Part shown: positions 2,369-12,761 of the stretch, one piece after another
Position numbering within the stretch: position 1 is the stretch's first letter
How the letters are laid out: each line of letters begins with the position of its first letter
Source: a virus
Lineage: Duplodnaviria; Heunggongvirae; Uroviricota; Caudoviricetes
Virus record (IMG/VR): IMGVR_UViG_2703718860_000015
Reading direction: 5' to 3' (one strand)
DNA length: 12,886 nucleotides
Position numbers and translations under genes: made by a program
The notes under the pieces: generated by a model
Told to the model about the DNA's origin: nothing
Database searches by the model: none
What the model saw: the letters and a program-made list of their open reading frames with translations, nothing else

Positions 2369-2444
2369 TGGCTCCTCTGACTGGACTCGAACCAGTGACA
2401 TACGGATTAACAGTCCGCCGTTCTACCGACTGAACTACAGAGGA
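2369..2444 (-). tRNA. asnT: tRNA-Asn (anticodon GTT)
   Basis: 76-nt reverse-complement match to the E. coli tRNA-Asn sequence (UCCUCUGUAGUUCAGUCGGUAGAACGGCGGACUGUUAAUCCGUAUGUCACUGGUUCGAGUCCAGUCAGAGGAGCCA), including encoded CCA. Which asn tRNA copy it is follows from the mtfA/serU neighbours. Confidence 0.95.
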
Positions 2445-2544: not shown

Positions 2545-3342
2545 TTAATGAACATTCGTCGCCGAAAACGAGTCTGTATCATTAGTGCGATGCAGTCTCT
2601 GCAAAGGATCTTGTTGATAAAATTGGCAGAAACGTTGCCACAATGAAGGGAAACGAGGAGCAAAAAGTTCTGGGGCGCTAAAGAAATATTCAGAAAGTAC
2701 GGCAAAACATTCAGCAGGATCACTGGCAGCATAAGCATCAATGCTCGCCGCATTCTCGCCAACCAATTCGATTTCTTCCTGAATGTTGTTCATTGCAGCA
2801 TGAAGATCGTGTTCCCAGCCAGCAACCTCACGCAACGGAATAAAGGGAACTCCGCTGGCGCGATCGCCGTTACGGGTGTCCAGCTTATGAGCGACTTCAT
2901 GAATAATCAGGTTAAAACCAGAAGCATCAAAAGAATCTTGTATATCCAACCAGTTCAAAACGATAGGCCCTTGCTGCCAGCTCTGACCTGACTGAACAAT
3001 ACGTTGGTTATGCACCAGACCGATATCGTCTTCCCATTCATCATCGACCACAAATGGCGCAGGATAAATTAAGACTTCATGAAAACCATCCAGCCATTCC
3101 AGTCCTAACTCCAGAACGGGTAGGCAAAATAGAAGTGCTATCCGGCAGCTTCTTAATGAATCCAGTTCAAAGCCCTGTAAAGGAACAAGCCGCTTTTGCT
3201 GTAAAAAACGTTCGGCAAGAGTGACTAATTTGCTTTGTTCCTGTTCCGTCAGACACGTTAAAAGGGGGATCGATAGTGCTTCCTGCCAGGGAAGGGCAGT
3301 TTGATGTGCTGATTCTTGTACTTTCCAGGGCCACTTAATCAT
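2545..3342 (-). CDS. mtfA: MtfA (Mlc titration factor A, YeeI), 265 aa
   Basis: ORF-track protein contains [28 protein letters not shown]...HEVAH (zinc-metallopeptidase motif). The track ORF starts at GTG 3381; I place the start at the in-frame ATG at 3342 (MIKWPWK), matching my recollection of the K-12 MtfA N-terminus. Stop TAA at 2545-2547. Confidence 0.93.
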
Positions 3343-3435
3343 CGTTTTGCTCGCAAACTCGTCACTTGAACAAAATTGCACGGACAGGGACTGTTAAAAT
3401 GCCAAATTTCCTGGCATCATGGCAACCATCTGAAC

Positions 3436-3525
3436 GGAGAGATGCCGGAGCGGCTGAACGGACCGGTCTCGAAAACCGGAGTGGGGGCAACTCCACCGGG
3501 GGTTCAAATCCCCCTCTCTCCGCCA
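3436..3525 (+). tRNA. serU: tRNA-Ser (anticodon CGA)
   Basis: 90-nt sequence GGAGAGATGCCGGAGCGGCTGAACGGACCGGTCTCGAAAACCGGAGTGGGGGCAACTCCACCGGGGGTTCAAATCCCCCTCTCTCCGCCA: long variable arm, CGA anticodon, encoded CCA. Confidence 0.95.
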
Positions 3526-3571: not shown

Positions 3572-3606
3572 TTGGAATTACTTGGAATATTTTGTTGGAA
3601 TATTCT
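3572..3606. repeat. Three direct repeats TTGGAAT(A/T)T, candidate integrase arm-type (P'-like) binding sites in attL
   Basis: cTTGGAATTA (3571-3580), cTTGGAATATT (3581-3591), TTGGAATATTc (3596-3606), 47-81 bp from the tRNA 3' end, overlapping the int stop codon and last codons. Placement is analogous to lambda P' arm sites. Confidence 0.35.
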
Positions 3607-4603
3607 GGGGTAATGGTACATCCAGTGTGGGTGAGATCTTTACTTTTCTATCATAGATTAGCACCTGTCCTTCGGTCTTGTGACCAGAGAAAAGTTGCTT
3701 ATCCCGGCTACTACCTTCGTAATCTGATATCCCCTTGGCTTTAAGGTCATGGAATGTAAAATCCGTCGCGATCCCTGATATTTGTCCAGCCAAATTTCTT
3801 GCCTCAACCCACATTTCATTAAATCCTTTATACATGTAACGGTTGCCGTACTGATTGCTGATTACATAGGCTGACTTGGGTAGCTGTTTAGCTTTTTCTA
3901 TAACTGATTGCAGACGGGGAGTCCAGGCTTTTATCTGTTTTTTTCCTGTTTTACCTTGCTGGATAAAGATCCCGTCGTTTCCGATCTGTTCCCATTTCAG
4001 AGACAACACATCGGAAATCCTTGCTGCGCACAGGTATGCAATTTCCATTGCGATAAAAACAGGCACAGGAGCCACGCTTAATACGGCCTGGTATTCTTTG
4101 TCAGTCACATAGCGCTCTCGGTTTTTGGCCTTGAATTTACTTACACCGGCACAAGGATTAGCCTTTACATACCCTCGTTCATACCCCCAACTGTAAACGC
4201 GTGACATGCTGCTTTTTTCATGGTTTGCCTGCGTTTTACTCTGCTCGCCCCTTTTGTCCATGTATCGTCTGATGTGCTCTGGTTTTACAGAATCGGCCAG
4301 CACCTTACCGAATACGGCCAGCAGTTTTTTTTGATGTTGCAGATAATCTTTTTGCGTTCTGGGACTAAGATCGCTGTAATAGGCGCTGGCGAGAAATTTT
4401 TCCCACAAACGCCCAAATGTCATTGCGTGATCATGATGGTTAACCGTTTCTTCATATTTTTTCCATAATGCGGCTAAACCATCCTTGATTGCAGTTAAGG
4501 TTACAGATTCTCTGGATGTTGGTTTCCATACATAACTATATTTATTGGGATATACCTTTGGCGGTAATTTTTCGTGTTCGGGATTTTTCCTTCGTCTTCC
4601 CAT
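3578..4603 (-). CDS. int: Phage integrase, tyrosine recombinase of the lambda Int family, 341 aa
   Basis: ATG at 4603; N-terminus MGRRRKNPEHEKLPPKVY resembles lambda Int MGRRRSHERRDLPPNLY (arm-binding domain). C-terminal catalytic region has R (CAARISD), K (QQGKTGKK), H (FHDLK), H (SGHK) and Y (LIYDRK). Adjacent to tRNA and reading toward it. Confidence 0.95.
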   Translation of the reverse strand: MGRRRKNPEHEKLPPKVYPNKYSYVWKPTSRESVTLTAIKDGLAALWKKYEETVNHHDHAMTFGRLWEKFLASAYYSDLSPRTQKDYLQHQKKLLAVFGKVLADSVKPEHIRRYMDKRGEQSKTQANHEKSSMSRVYSWGYERGYVKANPCAGVSKFKAKNRERYVTDKEYQAVLSVAPVPVFIAMEIAYLCAARISDVLSLKWEQIGNDGIFIQQGKTGKKQIKAWTPRLQSVIEKAKQLPKSAYVISNQYGNRYMYKGFNEMWVEARNLAGQISGIATDFTFHDLKAKGISDYEGSSRDKQLFSGHKTEGQVLIYDRKVKISPTLDVPLPQNIPTKYSK

Positions 4604-4806
4604 TAGATCGCACCGAAATCAGGTTCAGCCTCACGTGGTGGTAAAGTGTTTCTACAGGTAAACAGTTCCCGACTGACGATCGGTTTTCCACTACGATTGG
4701 TATAGAACGGAAGCCCATTTTTTATTAACCAGTTGCGCTGGTGGCTTGCATATTTGCAGCCCGTTAATATTAGCAATTCATCTTCGGTTAAAAATAAGCT
4801 GCTCAT
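4603..4806 (-). CDS. xis: Excisionase-like protein (small DNA-binding, DUF4224-like), 67 aa
   Basis: ATG at 4806; protein MSSLFLTEDELLILTGCKYASHQRNWLIKNGLPFYTNRSGKPIV. Its stop TAA (4605..4603) overlaps the int ATG by 1 nt (TAATG), implying translational coupling, as is typical for xis-int pairs. Confidence 0.7.
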   Translation of the reverse strand: MSSLFLTEDELLILTGCKYASHQRNWLIKNGLPFYTNRSGKPIVSRELFTCRNTLPPREAEPDFGAI

Positions 4807-4864
4807 AGCTATATCTCATAACCGCCGCTAACTATATGCGGTTAGCGGCGATCAGGGTTGAACA

Positions 4865-7309
4865 TTAAAAATCAGCCTGATTTGGGAACAGTTTTTGCCA
4901 GATAGCTGAAACGTATTTTGCCTGGTAACGCGCATCGTGCAGGGCATTATGGCGTTCACCCTCAAATGTGGTGACGTTGCGGGCATCGAAATCCATCACC
5001 AACCCCAGAGCGACCATCGTTCTTACATCGCGATCATTGGTGTAACGCCACGGGCAGGGGATCTCCTGCCGTTCATATGAACGGCGTAAAATCACGTTGT
5101 CGAAGTTGGCTCCATTTCCCCAGACCTGAACAAAAAACTCACCGGAGTTTTCGTCTATAAATTCCCGTAATTGTAAAAGCGCATCATCAAGCGGTATTCG
5201 ATCAGCTAAAATGGCGGCACGGGCTTCGCCAGAGCGTTGAAGCCACCATTCGATGGTGCTTATGTCTACAGTGCCGCCACATGTACCCATATCAATTATT
5301 TTGCTGAATTCAGGCCCCTGCTCTCCGGTTTGTGGATCGAAAAATACAGCGCCTATTGAGGCTATTGGCGCATCAGGATTTTTGCCCATTGTTTCAAGGT
5401 CAATCATCAGATGGTGCCACAACCTGCTGGTGGATGTGATTTCACGATGACCGTTCACCTTAATTAAGGGATTTGCTGTCTCGCCTGTTTCATTATTGCC
5501 ATTGGCATGTTGATCGCCTTCGGTGCACTCCTTGTTCGGGAGTCCGGCACTTTCCATTTCCTCCGGATCTTTTTCCCGGGCTTCATCCTGGCTTTCTTCG
5601 TTGAATGTCTCCTGGTATGTTGCGTCGCCCATCACCGCGCCACAGTCAGGACAGTTGCCGCCGCCGGTCTGACCGCAGGCTGTGCAGACTTTTTCCGGTT
5701 CCTGTTGCGCTACTGGTTCAGGCTGTTTCGTTTCTGGCTCGTTTTGTTGCGCATTTGGACTGTGTTGTTCCGCTTTATGGCCTTTCTGTTCCGTTTCTTG
5801 CTGGTTATGGTTCACAGAATCGCGGGTTTCAATCCCCTTCACCCATTTTGGATCATTCGGGTCGCTAATCCCTTCAACAAATTCTCCGTGAGAAGCAGCC
5901 AGTAATTTATCTGCATCGACAGGATTTTTGGGTGGAATGTTTTTCCTGGCTTCATAGAGTTCTGCACGCAGTTTCTGATATTTCGCATCAACAGAATTTA
6001 TCTGTGGCTGAGCATCCATCGACTGCGTGTCCTGATTATGTTCAGTTGTATCCGGTTCCACTGCTTCAGTCGTTGCCTGTTCATCTGCCATTGCGCCAGA
6101 TGGCTGCGGTTTTTCTTCATCATCCTGTTTTCCTTCTTTTGTTACACGCTGCGGCATTGGAGCAGAGGAGCGACCGCAGGCAATATCCACGATTTCTGGA
6201 TCAGGGTTGGCATGGTCGGTTTCGGTCAGTACTTTGTTCAGATATTCGGTAACACGGTGGGGAGTAGCCTCGATACCAATTGGTGCTTCTTTCACGGACG
6301 CAACCACTATCGCGCGGGAATAATCCAGGTGACCAGGCATGGCGATGAATTTGTCACGAAAAACAGAAAAGGGCGGCTTATTCTCTGAAACGATTTCTTC
6401 AATGCGTTTGGCGTGTGCCGGATGTGGATTGTAAATATCGATGTCCATTGAACGGGCCAGAACGCCAGCGGCAACGTCACGTTCCACTGACGCATCATCG
6501 TGGACAAAACCTTCACCGCGATCGGTAAGAATTCCTCCGCCAGCATTAGCGCCGGATGGCGTGCGGCTGATGCGTAAAACACGATTTCCTTTCATCCACT
6601 CTTTTGTCAGCAGACCTCGATCGGTATAGTCAGCGTCCAGGTATGCTTCGAAAAAAGCAGTCATTAACCCCAGACTGGAATTAACGGGATTAGGGAAAAC
6701 TTTGTCTGTGTCGCGTACCAGTTTGTGAAGGTCGCGAATCTCCAGCGGGTCGAGCAGCTTTGTGTTGTGGGAAATAGCCAGGGCAGTAACAGCAGGCAGT
6801 TCTTCAGCTCGTGCGATATGTAATGCCTGAAGTTCTTCCCGTGAAACGTGCGTTACCGGTTTTTCGCTGCCATGTTGCGCAAGCCAGCGAATGGGCAGTT
6901 CCTGACCGGAAATCGGCAGGAGCATATTATCCTCAATCTCAGCCATGTCTTCGCCATTGACGTTGGTATTGTCAGTGCTGGCTGGTTTGTCCTGAACTGA
7001 GGGGGAAGGCGCTATAAATATCATTGTGATGCCATCTTCTCCGCCTTTTTCATAGCGGTTGCAGAATTCGGTATCAAACACACCTTCAGGCGGCAGGTCA
7101 TTAACAATGGGCAAATTCACGCGAACAGGTTTTTTGAAATCCTCTTCGTCAAATCCAGCATCGTCCATTGCGACAACACCCCGTGATATTGCAACCGATA
7201 ATTTTTTTGCTGTGCGCCAGTAAAAACCGCCTTTAATCCCAAGGCGTTTTCTGACTTTGTCATTTTTGGCTTCGTAATACAGTGCAATTTCTTCTTTATC
7301 AGTGCTCAT
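4865..7309 (-). CDS. Large phage exonuclease (exodeoxyribonuclease VIII / RecE-like N-terminal region, C-terminal DnaQ-type DEDDh 3'-5' exonuclease domain), 814 aa
   Basis: ATG at 7309 preceded by GAGG. C-terminal about 190 aa carry Exo I (MIDLETMG), Exo II ([13 protein letters not shown]) and Exo III (HNALHDARY) motifs. A CxxC-x9-CxxC zinc-ribbon-like motif ([18 protein letters not shown]) and a long acidic low-complexity linker precede it. Occupies the exo/recE position of the early-left operon. Confidence 0.85.
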
Positions 7310-7401: not shown

Positions 7402-7590
7402 TTATCCAGCCGGTATTTCGTTATTCAGGTACAGCGATACTTTGTTTAACGGGAGACATTCACCGGAAATTTTTTGCTCGTCTCTTGCCTGATGGCAGGA
7501 TTCTTTACTGGCATAAATTCCGGTAATCACATTCTGTGGCTCACCCGTTATAAGAAAAACAGTCATTACCAGTGCAAATGCAGAAGTCAC
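7402..7590 (-). CDS. Hypothetical small protein with hydrophobic N-terminal segment (62 aa from GTG 7590, or 54 aa from ATG 7566)
   Basis: ORF-track protein MTSAFALVMTVFLITGEPQNV... The GTG start overlaps the upstream ORF stop (GTGA, 7590..7587). No recognisable homolog from memory. Start codon uncertain. Confidence 0.4.
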   Translation of the reverse strand: MTSAFALVMTVFLITGEPQNVITGIYASKESCHQARDEQKISGECLPLNKVSLYLNNEIPAG

Positions 7591-7775
7591 TGCTGCCCCC
7601 CGAAAATACCAAGTTTAAGAAGGGCAATTCTGGAGAGTATGGAATTATCATTGAGAAGATAAGGCTCATATTTTCTCATCTTAATGGCATCTTCAGTAAA
7701 CTCCCGGTTACTGAGCAGAACACCAATATCAAAACACCCTTCAGACGTATTAACGTTTGGTAATAACGTTTCCAT
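7587..7775 (-). CDS. Hypothetical small phage protein, 62 aa
   Basis: ATG at 7775 with GAGGA 7-8 nt upstream; protein METLLPNVNTSEGCFDIGVLLSNREFTEDAIKMRKYEPYLL.... Coupled to the downstream small ORF. Confidence 0.45.
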   Translation of the reverse strand: METLLPNVNTSEGCFDIGVLLSNREFTEDAIKMRKYEPYLLNDNSILSRIALLKLGIFGGQQ

Positions 7776-8576
7776 TATCGCGTCCTCAACAATGAATTTT
7801 GTGATGTGGTGCCTGGTGCCTCCAGGTGACGTTAACCAGTTAACAATTAACGCCGGAATACAGAATCACCCATAACGCTGTTTTTAGCTTTAACTGTTCC
7901 GCGTGCGCTTAGCCGCATTCACCGCATCACAAAATACACTTTAAAAATGGCGGATATCCATTTCCACCGAATCACCAGAAAAGTGATAACAGAGGTTGTT
8001 GTGGCGGTGTTGTCACTCAGGCGTATGGTCAACCTGACAACCCGGTGCATTTTCTGGAGCAATGGAGGAAGCCCCAGCCATACTTACCGCCGCGCCATTT
8101 CGCGGATTGCCACAACCGGAAGCGCACGATCGAATTACATTTAACGACGACATATACAGAGAGACTAACTTCGCCGAGCGCTTTCGTGTTATGCCCTGAC
8201 TTTTCAGGGATATGTTCTTTCAGTAAACTGTCAGTGCCGGATTCTTATCCGTGTCCGGCGCACGACCACACGTGACAGCGTGTTGGTCTCCATCATTAAC
8301 CCGGAACCTCTATGGAGGATAATATGCAAGTTGATATTATTAGCCCTGTAATGATCCATATGCTTGCGCACATCAGGCTCTTCTGGCACTAATCAACGTC
8401 GGAAAAATTGAAAATTCCGCTATGTGCTTTGAAGAGTTGAAACAACTTGTGCGCTTGTATGAATATATTAAAAAACAATCACAAGATACGGCGTAATATT
8501 TAAAATACTTTCTGTTATATGGGCCTGCTATAATGCTGGCCCATATTTCTAACCCCTCTATAAGAAAAACATATTA

Positions 8577-8990
8577 TTATGGCAATTTCTTCGGTAGCTC
8601 TTCAGAATGCTGAGTTGTTTTAATTATGGTTTTTAAATAATCATCGCTTTCATATTTGAGTGATTCTATGGCAATCCAGATGCGGGCTTTGGTGCCTGCA
8701 TTTGGTTCCAGTTGCTGTAGACGTTTTGCATCTTCCAGTAGTAAGGCGATAACGTGTTTCAGCTTCTCATCATTCGCTTGATTCTTGTTTTCAGGCGAAT
8801 TTTGTCCGCCGAATGGCCACTTTTCTTCGTACAGCCCGATAAAGGTTCGACGCACGTTACCGGATATATTATCGATGGTTTCTTTTTCTACGGTACTCAG
8901 GTCAAGAGTCGCCAGTTGAGAACGAACTATATTCGCTGCCATTTCCTGGAATGGTACTGGTAAATCTTTAAATTCCATCGTCAACCTCAT
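8577..8990 (-). CDS. Hypothetical early-left protein, 137 aa (133 aa if started at ATG 8978)
   Basis: ORF MRLTMEFKDLPVPFQEMAANIVRSQLATLDLS.... ATG 8990 overlaps the stop of the upstream 50-codon ORF (TGATG); the alternative ATG at 8978 has a GAGG 6 nt upstream. Sits where lambda carries N / early-left accessory genes; no homolog recognised. Confidence 0.6.
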   Translation of the reverse strand: MRLTMEFKDLPVPFQEMAANIVRSQLATLDLSTVEKETIDNISGNVRRTFIGLYEEKWPFGGQNSPENKNQANDEKLKHVIALLLEDAKRLQQLEPNAGTKARIWIAIESLKYESDDYLKTIIKTTQHSEELPKKLP

Positions 8991-9409: not shown

Positions 9410-9700
9410 TTAACAGGTTTTGTTTGGATACTGTCTTCGTGAGTGAACTACATTTACGATCTCGATGTTAGATGCTGTTACTCGGTAAAGTATTATGTAG
9501 TTAGGATGAGTCACTATCTCACGAAGACTTGGAACTCTTTCGCTCGGTGGGTACAGATAAGGGTGTTCAGTAAGTGACAAAACTGATGTTTCAATGCGTA
9601 TTTTTAGTCTACGTGCAGCGGGAGGGTTTTCCTTAGCAATATAGGCTACGATCTGACGTAAATCATCACGTGCAGAAGGTAGCCATAAAATGGGCAGCAT
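9410..9700 (-). CDS. parE: ParE-family type II toxin (ParE2-like), 96 aa
   Basis: Protein MLPILWLPSARDDLRQIVAYIAKENPPAARRLKIRIETSVLSLTEHPYLY...YIILYRVTASNIEIVNVVHSRRQ has the ParE/RelE-fold pattern. ATG 9700 overlaps the antitoxin stop (TAATG). Confidence 0.9.
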   Translation of the reverse strand: MLPILWLPSARDDLRQIVAYIAKENPPAARRLKIRIETSVLSLTEHPYLYPPSERVPSLREIVTHPNYIILYRVTASNIEIVNVVHSRRQYPNKTC

Positions 9701-9891
9701 TACTCACTCCTGTTCGTTGCAGCTAATTGAGCAATAAGGTTTTCCATTTCAGCCATTACTTCGTCATGTGGAATTGCAGGACGGGGATCTGAGAGGCTTG
9801 CTGCCACTTTGGCTCGCAACCATTCGTTATAGCTGTTTTCTTGTTCGACTGTTTCAAATTCAGAAATTATCGGGGAAAGGGCTGTACTCAT
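9700..9891 (-). CDS. paaA: PaaA-type antitoxin of ParE (PaaA2-like), 63 aa
   Basis: Small acidic protein MSTALSPIISEFETVEQENSYNEWLRAKVAASLSDPRPAIPHDEV... directly upstream of and coupled to the ParE toxin; GAGGAGG 7 nt before the ATG at 9891. Resembles the PaaA2 antitoxin of E. coli O157 prophages as I recall it. Confidence 0.85.
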   Translation of the reverse strand: MSTALSPIISEFETVEQENSYNEWLRAKVAASLSDPRPAIPHDEVMAEMENLIAQLAATNRSE

Positions 9892-9908: not shown

Positions 9909-10409
9909 TTAGGCGCGACGACCCTTTTGCGCGGCTAGCCATCGCGCAACGATTTCTTCAATTGATTCTTTTTTCTCCTTCATTTCCTTAAGCATTTTCT
10001 CTTTATCTTCTTTGGGGAAAGCCCTGAACGTCTGGAGCAAATCCCGCTCCATGGGGTCTATATTAAACGGAAGTTCGTTTTCCGATTGTTCCATATCTGC
10101 AGATATAGTGACAACATTGTCCTCCCCAGATTCTTGGGGATACATCCTTACAATTTGTAACAACTCGGCCATATCTGGTCTGATTGACTCGGGAGGAACT
10201 TGCAGCAACCCTGCGAACTTGATAACAGCCTCAAGATTTAAAGGTGTCTGACCATTTAGATAATGGCTTACAGCTCCCTGTGTCGAAAATCCCAGAATTT
10301 CTGCCGCACGCTCTTGGGTTAACCCTAGTTGATTTTTTTTCGCCGTCCAGATTTCTTTCAGTCTCTGGGCGGCTTGCAGGTCGATCTCTGACAGGGATTT
10401 TCTTTTCAT
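9909..10409 (-). CDS. paaR: cI-like prophage repressor, XRE-family HTH regulator (PaaR2-like), 166 aa, no S24 peptidase domain
   Basis: N-terminal HTH (LTQERAAEILGFSTQGAVSHYLNGQ) and a C-terminal charged helical region (KEDKEKMLKEMKEKKESIEE); no LexA-like Ser/Lys autocleavage domain. Divergent from the cro-like gene, and 17 nt upstream of the antitoxin gene on the same strand. Confidence 0.88.
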   Translation of the reverse strand: MKRKSLSEIDLQAAQRLKEIWTAKKNQLGLTQERAAEILGFSTQGAVSHYLNGQTPLNLEAVIKFAGLLQVPPESIRPDMAELLQIVRMYPQESGEDNVVTISADMEQSENELPFNIDPMERDLLQTFRAFPKEDKEKMLKEMKEKKESIEEIVARWLAAQKGRRA

Positions 10410-11201: not shown

Positions 11202-11269
11202 CCAACAATATTTATACCGGATTTCTTCCGGAAGTTCGTGGGTAAAGTTCGGTATCAGAAGAGGTGAGT

Positions 11270-12307
11270 ATGGCTAATGCCTGGCTCAGATTGTGGCATG
11301 ACATGCCAAATGACCCCAAGTGGCGAACGATTGCCAGGGTATCAGGACAGCCAATCGCAACAGTGATGGCAGTGTATATCCATCTTCTGGTGAGCGCGTC
11401 ACGAAATGTCACGACATGTCACGGCGTGTCACTACGTGGTCACATTGATGTCACGACGGAAGATTTAGCAAGTGCGCTTGATGTGACGGAAGACGTAATT
11501 GATTCAATTTTGCATGCAATGCAGGGGCGGGTTCTGGATGGTGACCTTATTTCCGGATGGGAAAAACGTCAGGTGCTGAAAGAGGACAATGGTAACGTTT
11601 CGCAAACGGCAAAATCCCCGGCAGAGCGCAAGAGAGCGCAGCGGGAGCGCGAAAAGCTGCGGAAATATGATGCTGATTGTCACGATGAGTCACGACGTGT
11701 CACGCATCTGTCACGACAAGTCACGACAGATAAAGATACAGATACAGAATTAAACCCCACACATAACGCGCGCATGCGCGAGAGTGCTCCAACCGGTGAG
11801 TCGAATGGTGCGTCGTTGCAGACAGCCGAACCTGAATTCCTGGACGGCCTGAGCGAACCGATCGGGAAATTTTCGATGACCACTGTCTGGCAGCCGTCGC
11901 CGGATTTTCGACAACGGGCAGCAGTGTGGGGTATGGCTCTGCCTGAGCCGGAATTTACACCTGCAGAGCTTGCCGCATTCCGGGATTACTGGATGGCGGA
12001 GGGGAAGGTTTTCACGCAGGTTCAGTGGGAGCAGAAATTTGCCCGCCACGTGCAGCACGTCAGGGCACAGGTAAAACCAGTCAGCAAGGGGGTAAGCCAT
12101 GCAGCATCAGGTGGCACGGCATCACGGGCAGTTCAGGAAATCCGGGCAGCACGCGAACAGTGGGAACGTGAAAACGGATTTATCAGCAACGGAAACGGCC
12201 TGGAAGCTGTGGGAGCTTATGGGGGAGGTGTATTCGAACCGCTGGACACAGAAGAACGGGGCCGCACCTTCGAAGCTCTGGATTGCCCAGATTGGCGCGA
12301 TGACTGA
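11270..12307 (+). CDS. Phage replication initiator (O-like), contains the origin iterons, 345 aa
   Basis: ATG at 11270 preceded by GAGGTGA (the track ORF begins at GTG 11264). N-terminal W/R-rich DNA-binding-like region (ANAWLRLWHDMPNDPKWRTIARV). Two clusters of GTCACG iterons lie within the coding sequence, as in the lambda O gene. Confidence 0.85.
   Translation: MANAWLRLWHDMPNDPKWRTIARVSGQPIATVMAVYIHLLVSASRNVTTCHGVSLRGHIDVTTEDLASALDVTEDVIDSILHAMQGRVLDGDLISGWEKRQVLKEDNGNVSQTAKSPAERKRAQREREKLRKYDADCHDESRRVTHLSRQVTTDKDTDTELNPTHNARMRESAPTGESNGASLQTAEPEFLDGLSEPIGKFSMTTVWQPSPDFRQRAAVWGMALPEPEFTPAELAAFRDYWMAEGKVFTQVQWEQKFARHVQHVRAQVKPVSKGVSHAASGGTASRAVQEIRAAREQWERENGFISNGNGLEAVGAYGGGVFEPLDTEERGRTFEALDCPDWRDD
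11398..11459 (+). repeat. Origin iteron cluster 1: six GTCAC(G) repeats at 10-11 bp spacing
   Basis: GTCAC starts at 11398, 11408, 11418, 11428, 11439 and 11450 (spacings 10, 10, 10, 11, 11), inside the O-like gene. Confidence 0.7.
11679..11757 (+). repeat. Origin iteron cluster 2 (five GTCACGA repeats) plus adjacent AT-rich element
   Basis: GTCAC starts at 11679, 11689, 11699, 11710 and 11720 (spacings 10, 10, 11, 10), followed by the A/T-rich ATAAAGATACAGATACAGAATTAAA (11730-11755), consistent with a DNA unwinding element. Confidence 0.7.
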
Positions 12308-12761
12308 ACAGCAAATCCGGATGGTCTGCCGTCAGTGCATGGACCGCTGCCGGGCGGGTGAAACGTGGCCCCCGGACCTGGCTGAGTTTGTTGCACTGAT
12401 TTCGGAGAGTGGGGCAAATCCATTTGGTCTTACGGTGGATGCCGTGATGGAAGAGTACCGGCGCTGGCGCAATGAATCCTGGCGATACGACGGGAGTGAT
12501 AAATACCCGTGGCCACAGCCTGTGCTGTACCACATCTGCCTCGAAATGCGTACCAGAGGGATTGAGCGCCAGATGACGCAGGGTGAGTTAAAACGACTTG
12601 CGGAACGGCAACTGACGAAATGGGCAAAGCATGTTGGTAACGGGATGAGTGTTCCGCCAGTGCGACGACAACTGGAAGGGGCGAAACACCCTCAAGGGCC
12701 AACGCCAATTGAACGGCTGAAACAGGAATACGAACGCCGGAAGGCAGCTGGTTTTATTTGA
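12099..12761 (+). CDS. Replication protein P-like (helicase loader), start uncertain (12099, 12219 or 12300)
   Basis: Central and C-terminal region (AMTEQQIRMVCRQCMDRCRAGETWPPDLAEFVALISE ... YPWPQPVLYHICLEMRTRG ... ELKRLAERQLTKWAKHV) resembles lambda P as I recall it (FLPSPGQFVAWCRE ... YPWKSNAHYWLVTNLY ... ELRRKAADELVHMTARI). AAGGGGG lies 6 nt before ATG 12099; ATG 12300 overlaps the O-like stop. Confidence 0.65.
   Translation: MQHQVARHHGQFRKSGQHANSGNVKTDLSATETAWKLWELMGEVYSNRWTQKNGAAPSKLWIAQIGAMTEQQIRMVCRQCMDRCRAGETWPPDLAEFVALISESGANPFGLTVDAVMEEYRRWRNESWRYDGSDKYPWPQPVLYHICLEMRTRGIERQMTQGELKRLAERQLTKWAKHVGNGMSVPPVRRQLEGAKHPQGPTPIERLKQEYERRKAAGFI

Follow-up and report, generated by a model that had tools for sequence, protein, structure and literature searches.

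The gene that occupies positions 4865 to 7309 on the minus strand of the window (the whole stretch of phage DNA analysed here, 12,886 nucleotides long) is, to judge from its sequence, a natural fusion in which a 3′-5′ exonuclease of the T4 DexA type has been attached to the N-terminal ~616 residues of RecE, in place of the nuclease that RecE normally has. The gene is real and intact and has no annealing partner, and both its open reading frame of 814 aa and its place in the early-left “recombination” slot beside xis and int are exactly as the first-pass annotation had them. The features on which the argument depends are these:

4865..7309, minus strand: RecE-N::DEDDh chimeric exonuclease (predicted), whole gene, 814 aa, from the open reading frame and domain searches
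6110..7309, minus strand: RecE N-terminal module (aa 1–400), a small alpha/beta subdomain and a large helical domain
5426..6109, minus strand: acidic linker (aa 401–628), common to Rac RecE and the Tritos-type genes, with disorder predicted for about aa 493–627
5642..5686, minus strand: zinc-ribbon-like CxxC-x7-CxxC (C542, C545, C553, C556), also in Rac RecE, of low model confidence
4868..5425, minus strand: predicted DEDDh (DnaQ-like, PF16473) 3′-5′ exonuclease domain (aa 629–814), from Pfam, Foldseek and the catalytic residues
5463, no strand: nuclease-swap joint, where DNA homology to Rac recE ends (about codon 615, RecE residue ~591; blastn and BLASTP)
4603..4806, minus strand: DUF4224 excisionase-like gene (xis), directly downstream of the chimera gene
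3578..4603, minus strand: tyrosine integrase, from the open reading frame and Pfam
3436-3525: tRNA-Ser(cga), the prophage integration site
7402..7775, minus strand: ydfD-like gene (DUF1482) and dicB, operon neighbours upstream of the chimera gene

Residues 1–616 match positions 1–602 of the 877 in the NCBIfam RecE equivalog NF007259 with 1078 bits, a whole-protein score that stays below the curated cut-off of 1269; residues 58–616 share 74% identity with Rac RecE, the similarity ending at RecE residue 591 (BLASTP), and the DNA is 82.5% identical to Rac recE over window positions 5463–6971 (blastn against the Rac locus). The earlier description of a “RecE-position” protein was thus right as to place and an understatement as to kind, since this part is RecE itself. 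Rac RecE (exodeoxyribonuclease VIII of K-12) is alike throughout its N-terminal ~600 residues, with PF06630, the linker and the paired CxxC motifs, and its gene has the same operon position upstream of xis and int. The linker is as acidic as had been claimed (net charge −25 and 37% E/D/Q/P over aa 380–630), with a pLDDT below 50 for aa ~493–627, and the cysteine motif reads C542-x2-C545-x7-C553-x2-C556 (its Rac RecE counterpart is CNACGQTGGDNCPDCG), so that the two CxxC pairs stand and the spacer of nine residues first given for them becomes one of seven. Because Rac RecE has both, the zinc ribbon and the acidic linker are ordinary RecE features; their reading as novel additions is ruled out, and what had been singled out as special is inherited and predicted to be disordered.

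The RecE N-module has no function assigned to it (PMC11611040), and its fold found no match among solved structures. A large-database search with this module returned near-identical E. coli copies only, identical chimera proteins being present on hundreds of E. coli contigs, and its diversity was judged instead from a search of 50%-identity representatives; in the 82 representatives that reach 400 aa or more, the effector is a PD-(D/E)xK nuclease in 19, a DEDDh domain in 13 and RecT in 2.

Beyond the joint, the protein matches PF16473 (Rv2179c-like 3′-5′ exonuclease) at aa 632–804 over the full profile (1–177 of 177; E=1.5e-62, far beyond chance; 210.9 bits against a curated cut-off of 27), and the three motifs quoted for a C-terminal DEDDh exonuclease are present, IDLETMG at aa 636–642, the second motif at 730–741 and HNALHDARY at 787–795. 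The predicted catalytic pentad, formed by D637 and E639 (IDLET), D737 (NFDN), and H787 and D792 (HNALHD), aligns with D7, E9, D119, H186 and D191 of DexA; these columns are invariant in 20 homologues, apart from a single D-to-E substitution in the D119 column, and the pentad is kept over ~60% sequence divergence. The AF2 model gives the domain a pLDDT of roughly 70–95, and Foldseek places T4 DexA (8KEL) as its top match with a probability of 1.00, a value reached likewise by Cas2-DnaQ and RNase T, as befits an RNase-H-like DEDD fold, with oligoribonuclease and the CBASS-associated exonuclease Cap18 as further structural neighbours. Rac RecE, in contrast, ends in a PD-(D/E)xK 5′-3′ nuclease (PF12684, residues 592–866): PF12684/DUF3799, which Rac RecE matches with E=4e-28, has no match in the chimera protein, and neither Pfam nor Foldseek finds at its C-terminus a canonical RecE or lambda-Exo fold, but rather a DexA-like DEDDh one, which bears out the earlier view that this nuclease is not of the RecE/lambda-Exo type. 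The 3′-5′ polarity and the substrate of the chimera nuclease are what we infer from these likenesses.

The window gene is a recombinant of the Rac and Tritos lineages, because a Rac-like N-module stands in a Tritos-type gene. The DNA segment 5463–5917 has homology to Rac recE as well as to gp27 of Tritos, and the gene is a mosaic, Rac-like towards its 5′ end and Tritos-like towards its 3′ end, with the two parts overlapping in a common linker segment of ~450 bp. Tritos gp27 and the “exonuclease” of E. coli O157/ST131 prophages (PHROG 2082) have the same three-part architecture and occupy, like the window gene, a slot in the order dicB, ydfD, exonuclease, xis, int that holds no annealase; they are 77–82% identical to it in the DEDDh domain and 64–82% in the linker, but differ in the N-module, where identity is about 19–21%, PF06630 finds no match, and the relationship (hhalign, 99.8%) is seen by profile comparison only. 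A 2025 paper treats DnaQ-like nucleases within lambdoid Rec modules as genuine members and already describes a nuclease-only, annealase-less, Chi-rich “Tritos” class (PMC12315714, Table 1, class B). The chimera architecture is very common in E. coli lambdoid prophages and already catalogued, and the arrangement, neither rare nor puzzling by itself, is standard in DicB/Qin-type lambdoid prophages and is also that of active phages, Tritos among them.

A recombination event, illegitimate or homologous, that removed the RecE nuclease and recT could also have left nothing more than a non-functional relic, a decaying gene of a cryptic prophage. Fragments of this sort exist: K-12 Qin ydfE is truncated, as are many database entries, the copy in PPompW_EH2246 is frameshifted, and one representative (P0165) lacks two catalytic residues. 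The window gene, however, is an unbroken reading frame with a conserved pentad, its dN/dS relative to Tritos is 0.18 in the DEDDh domain and 0.40 in the linker, and its architecture persists both where the N-module is only 26–33% identical and in Tritos and other phages that form plaques. The gene is under purifying selection, and decay, which the conservation of the sequence largely refutes, is highly improbable.

Among complete E. coli genomes, the DEDDh segment is found in 60%, as against 32% for the canonical recE-nuclease/recT; one genome can carry as many as 7 copies, and the segment is always flanked by ydfD/dicB and xis-int, active phages included. The order ydfD/dicB, chimera, xis is repeated, again with no annealase, in four other E. 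coli loci that are divergent and occupy three att sites, and the annealase-less layout is also that of the fusions with the distant N-modules mentioned above. In the window, the early-left operon is of the Qin/DicB type, because a ydfD-like gene and dicB lie upstream. The claim that no annealing-protein gene accompanies the nuclease holds on a wider view: Pfam, NCBIfam and PHROG scans of the window detect nothing of the RecT, Bet, Erf or Sak kinds between repressor and int, and the PGAP annotation of a 99.9%-identical prophage shows no annealase from int to the lysis genes. Nor is there space for one, because the DUF4224 excisionase-like gene follows at once; Rac RecE has its RecT partner, whereas here recT is absent and xis is directly next, and in the relatives of PD-(D/E)xK type the RecT slot is still occupied, by RecT itself in L017 and by a 271-aa protein with no assigned function in L016. 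The early-left operon thus contains a nuclease and lacks genes for an annealase (SAP), an SSB and an anti-RecBCD protein, although its small ORFs with no assigned function could include a novel anti-RecBCD.

The 53-kb JNEC-KY202 prophage, which is the 99.9%-identical one, carries 11 Chi sites on the top strand and 4 on the bottom strand, where ~1.4 and ~0.6 would be expected; the stretch from int to cos contains all 11 of those on the top strand, and three Chi sites fall within the window (4737, 5426 and 11036). The Tritos genome is Chi-rich as well. This enrichment is a sign of reliance on RecBCD, from which the participation of the chimera gene does not follow, and a Chi-rich, annealase-less prophage fits the nuclease-only “Tritos” class (PMC12315714).

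The function that we propose tentatively, at something short of an even chance, is that of a tethered nuclease that trims 3′ ends in aid of host RecBCD/RecA recombination. The steps would be: (i) a modular variant of RecE, in which the N-module and the flexible acidic linker carry a DEDDh domain instead of the PD-(D/E)xK 5′-3′ nuclease, would be transcribed with the early-left (pL-type) operon upon induction or infection; (ii) the N-module, to which a targeting role is given here as a conjecture, would take the enzyme to RecE's own substrate or partner, presumably DNA ends or recombination or replication intermediates; (iii) the tethered domain would there trim 3′ termini (3′ tails, non-homologous flaps), in the manner of T4 DexA, whose 3′-5′ activity serves recombination in intron homing (PMC12153337); (iv) and finally, the phage, which has no exonuclease/annealase pair of its own, would use the host RecBCD-Chi-RecA pathway with the chimera nuclease as an accessory.

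That the nuclease would be linked in this way to host recombination is suggested by the pairing of the N-module with alternative effectors and by DEDDh kin within an Erf-SSB-Abc2 module, and also by the conserved catalytic residues, the low dN/dS and the annealase-less layout, the enrichment in Chi, and DexA as the closest solved structure. The kin in question are the standalone lambdoid DEDDh proteins (ST64B Sb30, mEp460 gp26, mEp235 gp30 / epsilon34 “DnaQ”), 55–57% identical to the C-terminal domain, which differ in being 183–190 aa long and without the RecE N-module or linker. One of them, mEp235 gp30 (55% identity), lies inside a compact canonical Rec module made up of Erf, SSB, DEDDh and Abc2; ST64B Sb30 and mEp460 gp26 stand directly upstream of xis, as the window gene does, and these two tell against recombination, being standalone homologues beside int in phages that have no Rec module. 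DnaQ genes close to int are not necessarily recombination genes, and 3′-5′ exonucleases generally inhibit homologous recombination (PMC12315714).

The main rival, which we consider somewhat unlikely, is that the gene serves anti-phage defence or superinfection exclusion, with the DEDDh domain degrading foreign nucleic acid and the RecE N-module as an auxiliary domain. T4 DexA (PDB 8KEL/8KEN), which also belongs to PF16473, comes first among solved structures in both sequence and fold comparisons, although it is only about 20–22% identical to the window domain and has specific loops that the window protein lacks; and EcD (GenBank HAK9828821.1), an E. coli homologue of DexA, guards E. coli against T4 in the “HREX” defence by digesting 5hmC-modified T4 DNA (PMC12153337). 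DexA and EcD are standalone, whereas the window domain is fused to the RecE N-module. In this respect the TONDO exonucleases offer a general likeness, by description only, as a prophage DEDDh domain with an auxiliary domain: these ISG20-like enzymes, borne by prophages, trim the 3′ ends of RNA phages and mostly depend on auxiliary domains that vary (PMC13344964). The column equivalent to DexA W152, the base-contacting residue that recognises 5hmC, is the second most variable of the 179 in the domain (T/Y/C/R/W/V/H) and adjoins an invariant motif, as would be expected if substrate specificity were diversifying, and the abundance of the gene in E. coli, in both genomes and copies, is also in favour of defence. 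The HREX signature itself is nevertheless not reproduced, since W152 is replaced by T757, the tetramer-forming D90 (Ala in EcD) is kept as D709 in a loop alignment of modest reliability, and the equivalent of D169 depends on the alignment, being V771 with MAFFT or D773 with HMMER. The PADLOC match is weak and of a generic Cas-associated DEDDh kind (E=1.8e-4), and the gene is deep inside a repressor-controlled early-left operon rather than in a moron-like cassette. The homologous genes of Rac, recET, are not expressed in lysogens, which we count against defence; a promoter scan upstream of the chimera gene found nothing above shuffled controls, and expression in the lysogen can be argued neither way from it.

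Counter-defence, or the processing of RNA or oligonucleotides during lytic growth, seems to us distinctly unlikely; the nuclease would then attack nucleic acids of host immunity that have a free 3′ end, such as retron msDNA or signalling oligonucleotides, or would trim RNAs. The substrate of the chimera could be RNA and not DNA, because Pfam and PGAP name the family as exoribonuclease, PF16473 being defined by the 3′-5′ exoribonuclease Rv2179c of Mycobacterium tuberculosis. This founder has the domain in common, matched at full length, but is a single-domain bacterial housekeeping exoribonuclease, and a direct PDB sequence search with the window protein did not recover it; the labels that PGAP gives to the chimera gene are “exonuclease” or “3′-5′ exonuclease”. 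RNase T, oligoribonuclease and Cap18 among the structural neighbours would suit such a role, as would expression from an early operon, which has the timing of anti-defence, and the spread of the domain through lytic and temperate phages alike (725 of 50,697 records). On the other hand, a scaffold derived from a recombination protein and the occurrence of the domain in Erf/SSB/Abc2 modules point to DNA transactions, and the chimera gene shows no consistent association with any defence system.

Beside the accessory role in recombination that we favour, an unlikely but more radical reading would take the RecE N-module as an exchangeable platform that brings nucleases of opposite polarity, or RecT, to one common target; its DEDDh version, the commoner in E. 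coli, would then serve immunity or counter-immunity and not recombination, with its specificity diversifying at the W152 equivalent. RecE/RecT is a workhorse of recombineering, and the chimera offers a handle on the RecE N-terminal region, because whatever this region binds must serve nucleases of either polarity. In nature the region is joined more often to a DEDDh domain without RecT than to the canonical nuclease, and the pairing of N-module and DEDDh has been maintained across deep divergence. The chimera is also a concrete candidate for an accessory factor of the Chi-dependent, annealase-less lambdoid phages described recently, and it lends itself to asking whether the DexA-like nucleases of prophages serve recombination or immunity.

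Some minor features of the element may be added. Where Tritos annotates a DicF, Rfam gives no match at the gathering threshold, only a sub-threshold STnc100-like one. The 137-aa ORF at 8577–8990 was considered as a hidden annealase or SSB and rejected, having no Pfam, NCBIfam or PADLOC match and being too short for the known annealases; PHROGs of unknown function are the only ones that it matches. The 99.9%-identical prophage carries an att repeat of 31 bp.

The 814-codon reading frame at 4865-7309 (minus strand) holds as first annotated, and the core observation of the first-pass annotation, that a protein in the position of RecE ends in an exonuclease of the DEDDh type, is right and concerns a real feature. 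In Pfam, PF06630 ('Enterobacterial exodeoxyribonuclease VIII') falls on aa 56-189 (E=7e-34) and PF16473 ('Rv2179c-like 3'-5' exoribonuclease') on aa 632-804, where the entire profile is matched (1-177/177, E=1.5e-62). The three DEDDh motifs that had been quoted are located at aa 636-642, 730-741 and 787-795, the catalytic residues being D637, E639, D737, H787 and D792. These align with those of T4 DexA, and their columns are invariant in an alignment of 20 homologues, except for one D-to-E change at the D119 column. The PD-(D/E)xK signature reported as missing is indeed lacking, PF12684 matching Rac RecE, the exodeoxyribonuclease VIII of the K-12 prophage (E=4e-28), and not this fusion protein. 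The acidic linker is likewise found (net charge -25 over aa 380-630), as is the cysteine motif, with a spacer of seven residues and not the nine described (C542-x2-C545-x7-C553-x2-C556). AlphaFold2 predicts aa ~493-627, including this motif, to be disordered, and the DEDDh domain with confidence.

The first-pass annotation missed that the fusion is a RecE in which the nuclease has been swapped. NF007259, the NCBIfam equivalog of RecE, aligns aa 1-616 with profile positions 1-602 of 877 at 1078 bits, and falls short of the cut-off of 1269 for want of a match to the final third of the profile. By BLASTP, aa 58-616 are 74% identical to residues 50-591 of Rac RecE, and the similarity stops at '...ETGE(T/V)A(N/D)P(L/V)I', the boundary of the C-terminal nuclease of RecE, whose domain comprises residues 564-866 (PMC11611040). 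Since Rac RecE carries both a zinc ribbon (CNACGQTGGDNCPDCG) and an acidic linker, these are inherited RecE features in the fusion.

At the DNA level, the 5' part of the gene (5463-6971) is Rac-like, with 82.5% homology to Rac recE that ends at 5463, while the 3' part (4857-5917, DEDDh and linker) has 82-83% identity to a gene of the PPompW prophage and to gp27 of Tritos, an active phage. The two homologies overlap in a linker segment of ~450 bp (5463-5917), and since this segment is common to all three genes, it is plausibly the crossover region. The Tritos-type proteins of O157:H7, ST131 and other strains (823-830 aa) are 64-82% identical to the fusion in the linker and 77-82% in the DEDDh domain, whereas their first ~460 residues show only about 19-21% identity and are without a PF06630 match. 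By profile comparison, this N-region is nevertheless a remote homologue of the RecE N-terminal module (aa 1-400 of the fusion; hhalign 99.8%, E=1e-27, 11% identity over 332 columns). Against Tritos, dN/dS is 0.18 in the DEDDh part and 0.40 in the linker, and the DEDDh part is thus under purifying selection; that the gene is a dead relic is contradicted by the conservation data and is very improbable. Some fusion-type copies may be altered in activity or inactive: the allele of ST131 strain 4224 (L013, exonuclease gene 4501-6972) has Glu for Asp at the Exo II catalytic position (DexA D119 column), and in the representative protein P0165 two of the catalytic residues are replaced (E to K, D to A).

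The N-module is rare: when 1.84 billion representative proteins were searched, it was found in 229 clusters. Of the 82 representatives with a length of 400 aa or more, 19 have a C-terminus of the PD-(D/E)xK (RecE) type and 13 a DEDDh one, while RecT accompanies two and DUF3799 one; the remainder show no other Pfam domain and may be fragments or truncated copies. Alternative nucleic-acid enzymes are thus carried by this module. RecT and RecE-N lie in one polypeptide in two of the 50 proteins of alignment A2, which could be a RecE-N::RecT fusion or a gene-calling artefact.

The fusion architecture is widespread and already present in the Pfam, PHROG (phrog_2082, phrog_20376, phrog_14078) and PGAP catalogues, within a class described in 2025. 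PF16473 is found in 725 of 50,697 phage records, lytic and temperate, and identical proteins occur on hundreds of contigs under the names 'exonuclease' or '3'-5' exoribonuclease'. Of 5,426 complete E. coli genomes, 3,253 (60%) contain the DEDDh-coding segment by megablast, and a single genome may have as many as 7 copies. The Rac recE-nuclease and recT segment is present in 1,750 (32%), and the Rac-like/Tritos-like recombinant of the window in 197 at a coverage of at least 80%. In the literature examined we found no explicit statement that the nuclease of the 'Tritos' class is a RecE N-module fusion, that the window allele is such a recombinant joined in the shared linker, or that in E. coli the DEDDh form is commoner than canonical RecE/RecT, as it is (60% against 32% of complete genomes).

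The early-left operon of the window has the following order:

9909-10409, repressor
9410-9891, minus strand, RelE/RelB pair
DUF1391 gene
8577-8990, minus strand, 137-aa gene
dicB
ydfD-like gene
4865-7309, minus strand, fusion gene
xis-like gene
int

The annealing partner, which had been noted as absent, is not there, the fusion gene being directly followed by the xis-like gene and then int. In the ~53-kb JNEC-KY202 prophage, 99.9% identical to the window, no RecT, Bet, Erf, Sak, SSB or known anti-RecBCD gene was found from int to the lysis genes, where a RusA resolvase is the sole other recombination gene. This absence is a conserved feature and not decay; the same gene order without RecT is found in four divergent E. 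coli loci at three integration sites, in phage Tritos, and around the distant fusions P0147 and P0226, whose N-modules are only 26-33% identical to that of the window. Where distant RecE-N proteins retain PD-(D/E)xK, a gene in the RecT slot follows. At one locus (L017) this gene is RecT, its start codon overlapping the preceding stop codon; in a distant prophage (L016, 6565-7380) it comes immediately after the RecE and encodes a 271-aa protein of unknown function (phrog_3657), a candidate unrecognised annealing protein.

The features of the integration site and the Chi sites in the window are:

2369-2444, minus strand, tRNA-Asn
2545-3381, minus strand, mtfA
3436-3525, plus strand, tRNA-Ser(cga), with the prophage integrated at its 3' end
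4737, plus strand, Chi (GCTGGTGG)
5426, plus strand, Chi
11036, plus strand, Chi

The far end of the JNEC-KY202 prophage is marked by an att repeat, 31 bp of the tRNA end, and a related prophage of O157:H7 occupies the same tRNA-Ser(cga) site. One Chi site lies in the nuclease gene, where DEDDh is encoded, and another in the xis-like gene; the bottom strand of the window has none. Over the whole prophage, Chi occurs 11 times on the top strand and 4 times on the bottom strand, where base composition would predict about 1.4 and 0.6, and all 11 top-strand sites fall between int and cos. In lambdoid phages, DnaQ-type genes have been noted sporadically near int, and the four phages of the 'Tritos' class, which have a nuclease without an annealase (SAP), SSB or anti-RecBCD, are all rich in Chi on the top strand (7-21 sites); phages that lack an anti-RecBCD function are argued to use host RecBCD and Chi (PMC12315714). 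The JNEC-KY202 element fits this class by the Chi prediction.

As regards function, the solved structure nearest to the DEDDh domain is T4 DexA (PDB 8KEL/8KEN; sequence E=4.7e-7, Foldseek rank 1), of the same Pfam family, a 3'-5' DNA exonuclease of host-DNA scavenging and of the recombination step of intron homing (PMC12153337). Standalone homologues, 55-57% identical to the domain, lie directly upstream of xis in ST64B and mEp460, and in mEp235 within a tightly packed Erf-SSB-DEDDh-Abc2 recombination module. The reading with the best support, which we tentatively propose at somewhat less than even odds, is a modular Rec-module nuclease accessory to host RecBCD-Chi-RecA recombination: the N-module and flexible linker would tether, and presumably target, a DexA-like, putatively 3'-5' exonuclease. 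On intermediates of recombination or replication this enzyme might trim flaps or 3' ends, and it would help the host pathway and not form half of an exonuclease/annealase pair. The main rival, immunity, seems rather unlikely. It recalls EcD, an E. coli DexA homologue that digests only 5hmC DNA and protects against T4 (PMC12153337), and the prophage ISG20-like DEDDh nucleases with auxiliary domains that defend against RNA phages (PMC13344964). In addition, T757 (5039-5041), equivalent to the DexA W152 that contacts the base and is required for 5hmC-DNA cleavage (PMC12153337), ranks second in variability among the 179 columns of the domain (T/Y/C/R/W/V/H in close homologues, next to an invariant NDRDVRT motif), and this hypervariability may reflect diversifying substrate specificity. 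However, the gene lies within a repressed early operon, the upstream promoter signal is not above chance, the HREX signature residues are not found (W152 to T, D90 kept) and the PADLOC match is weak and generic. A role in counter-defence or RNA processing is improbable and, like the dead relic, less likely than either of these readings.

Among the other genes of the early region, the RelE/RelB pair, between the repressor and the remaining operon, consists of a toxin of the RelE/ParE family (96 aa) and an antitoxin resembling RelB (63 aa), and a second pair, ParE/ParD, is found in the nin region of the JNEC-KY202 prophage (L004 30942-31504). For the 137-aa product, Pfam, NCBIfam and PADLOC gave no match, and the PHROGs that it matches are all of unknown function (phrog_1363); the protein seems to be mosaic, since different PHROGs match its N- and C-terminal halves. 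Just upstream of dicB and overlapping its start, a sub-threshold Rfam match to the sRNA STnc100 (7743-7950, minus strand) scores 34.5 bits (E=1.2e-5), short of the gathering score of 47; DicF, annotated in the homologous stretch of Tritos, was not detected there by Rfam. On the plus strand, an O-like ORF (11264-12307, DnaT-like ssDNA-binding domain) and a P-like ORF (12099-12761) share ~200 nt as mechanically called, but only 8 nt with the later P start of PGAP, and PHROG 15931 joins both as one 482-aa family.
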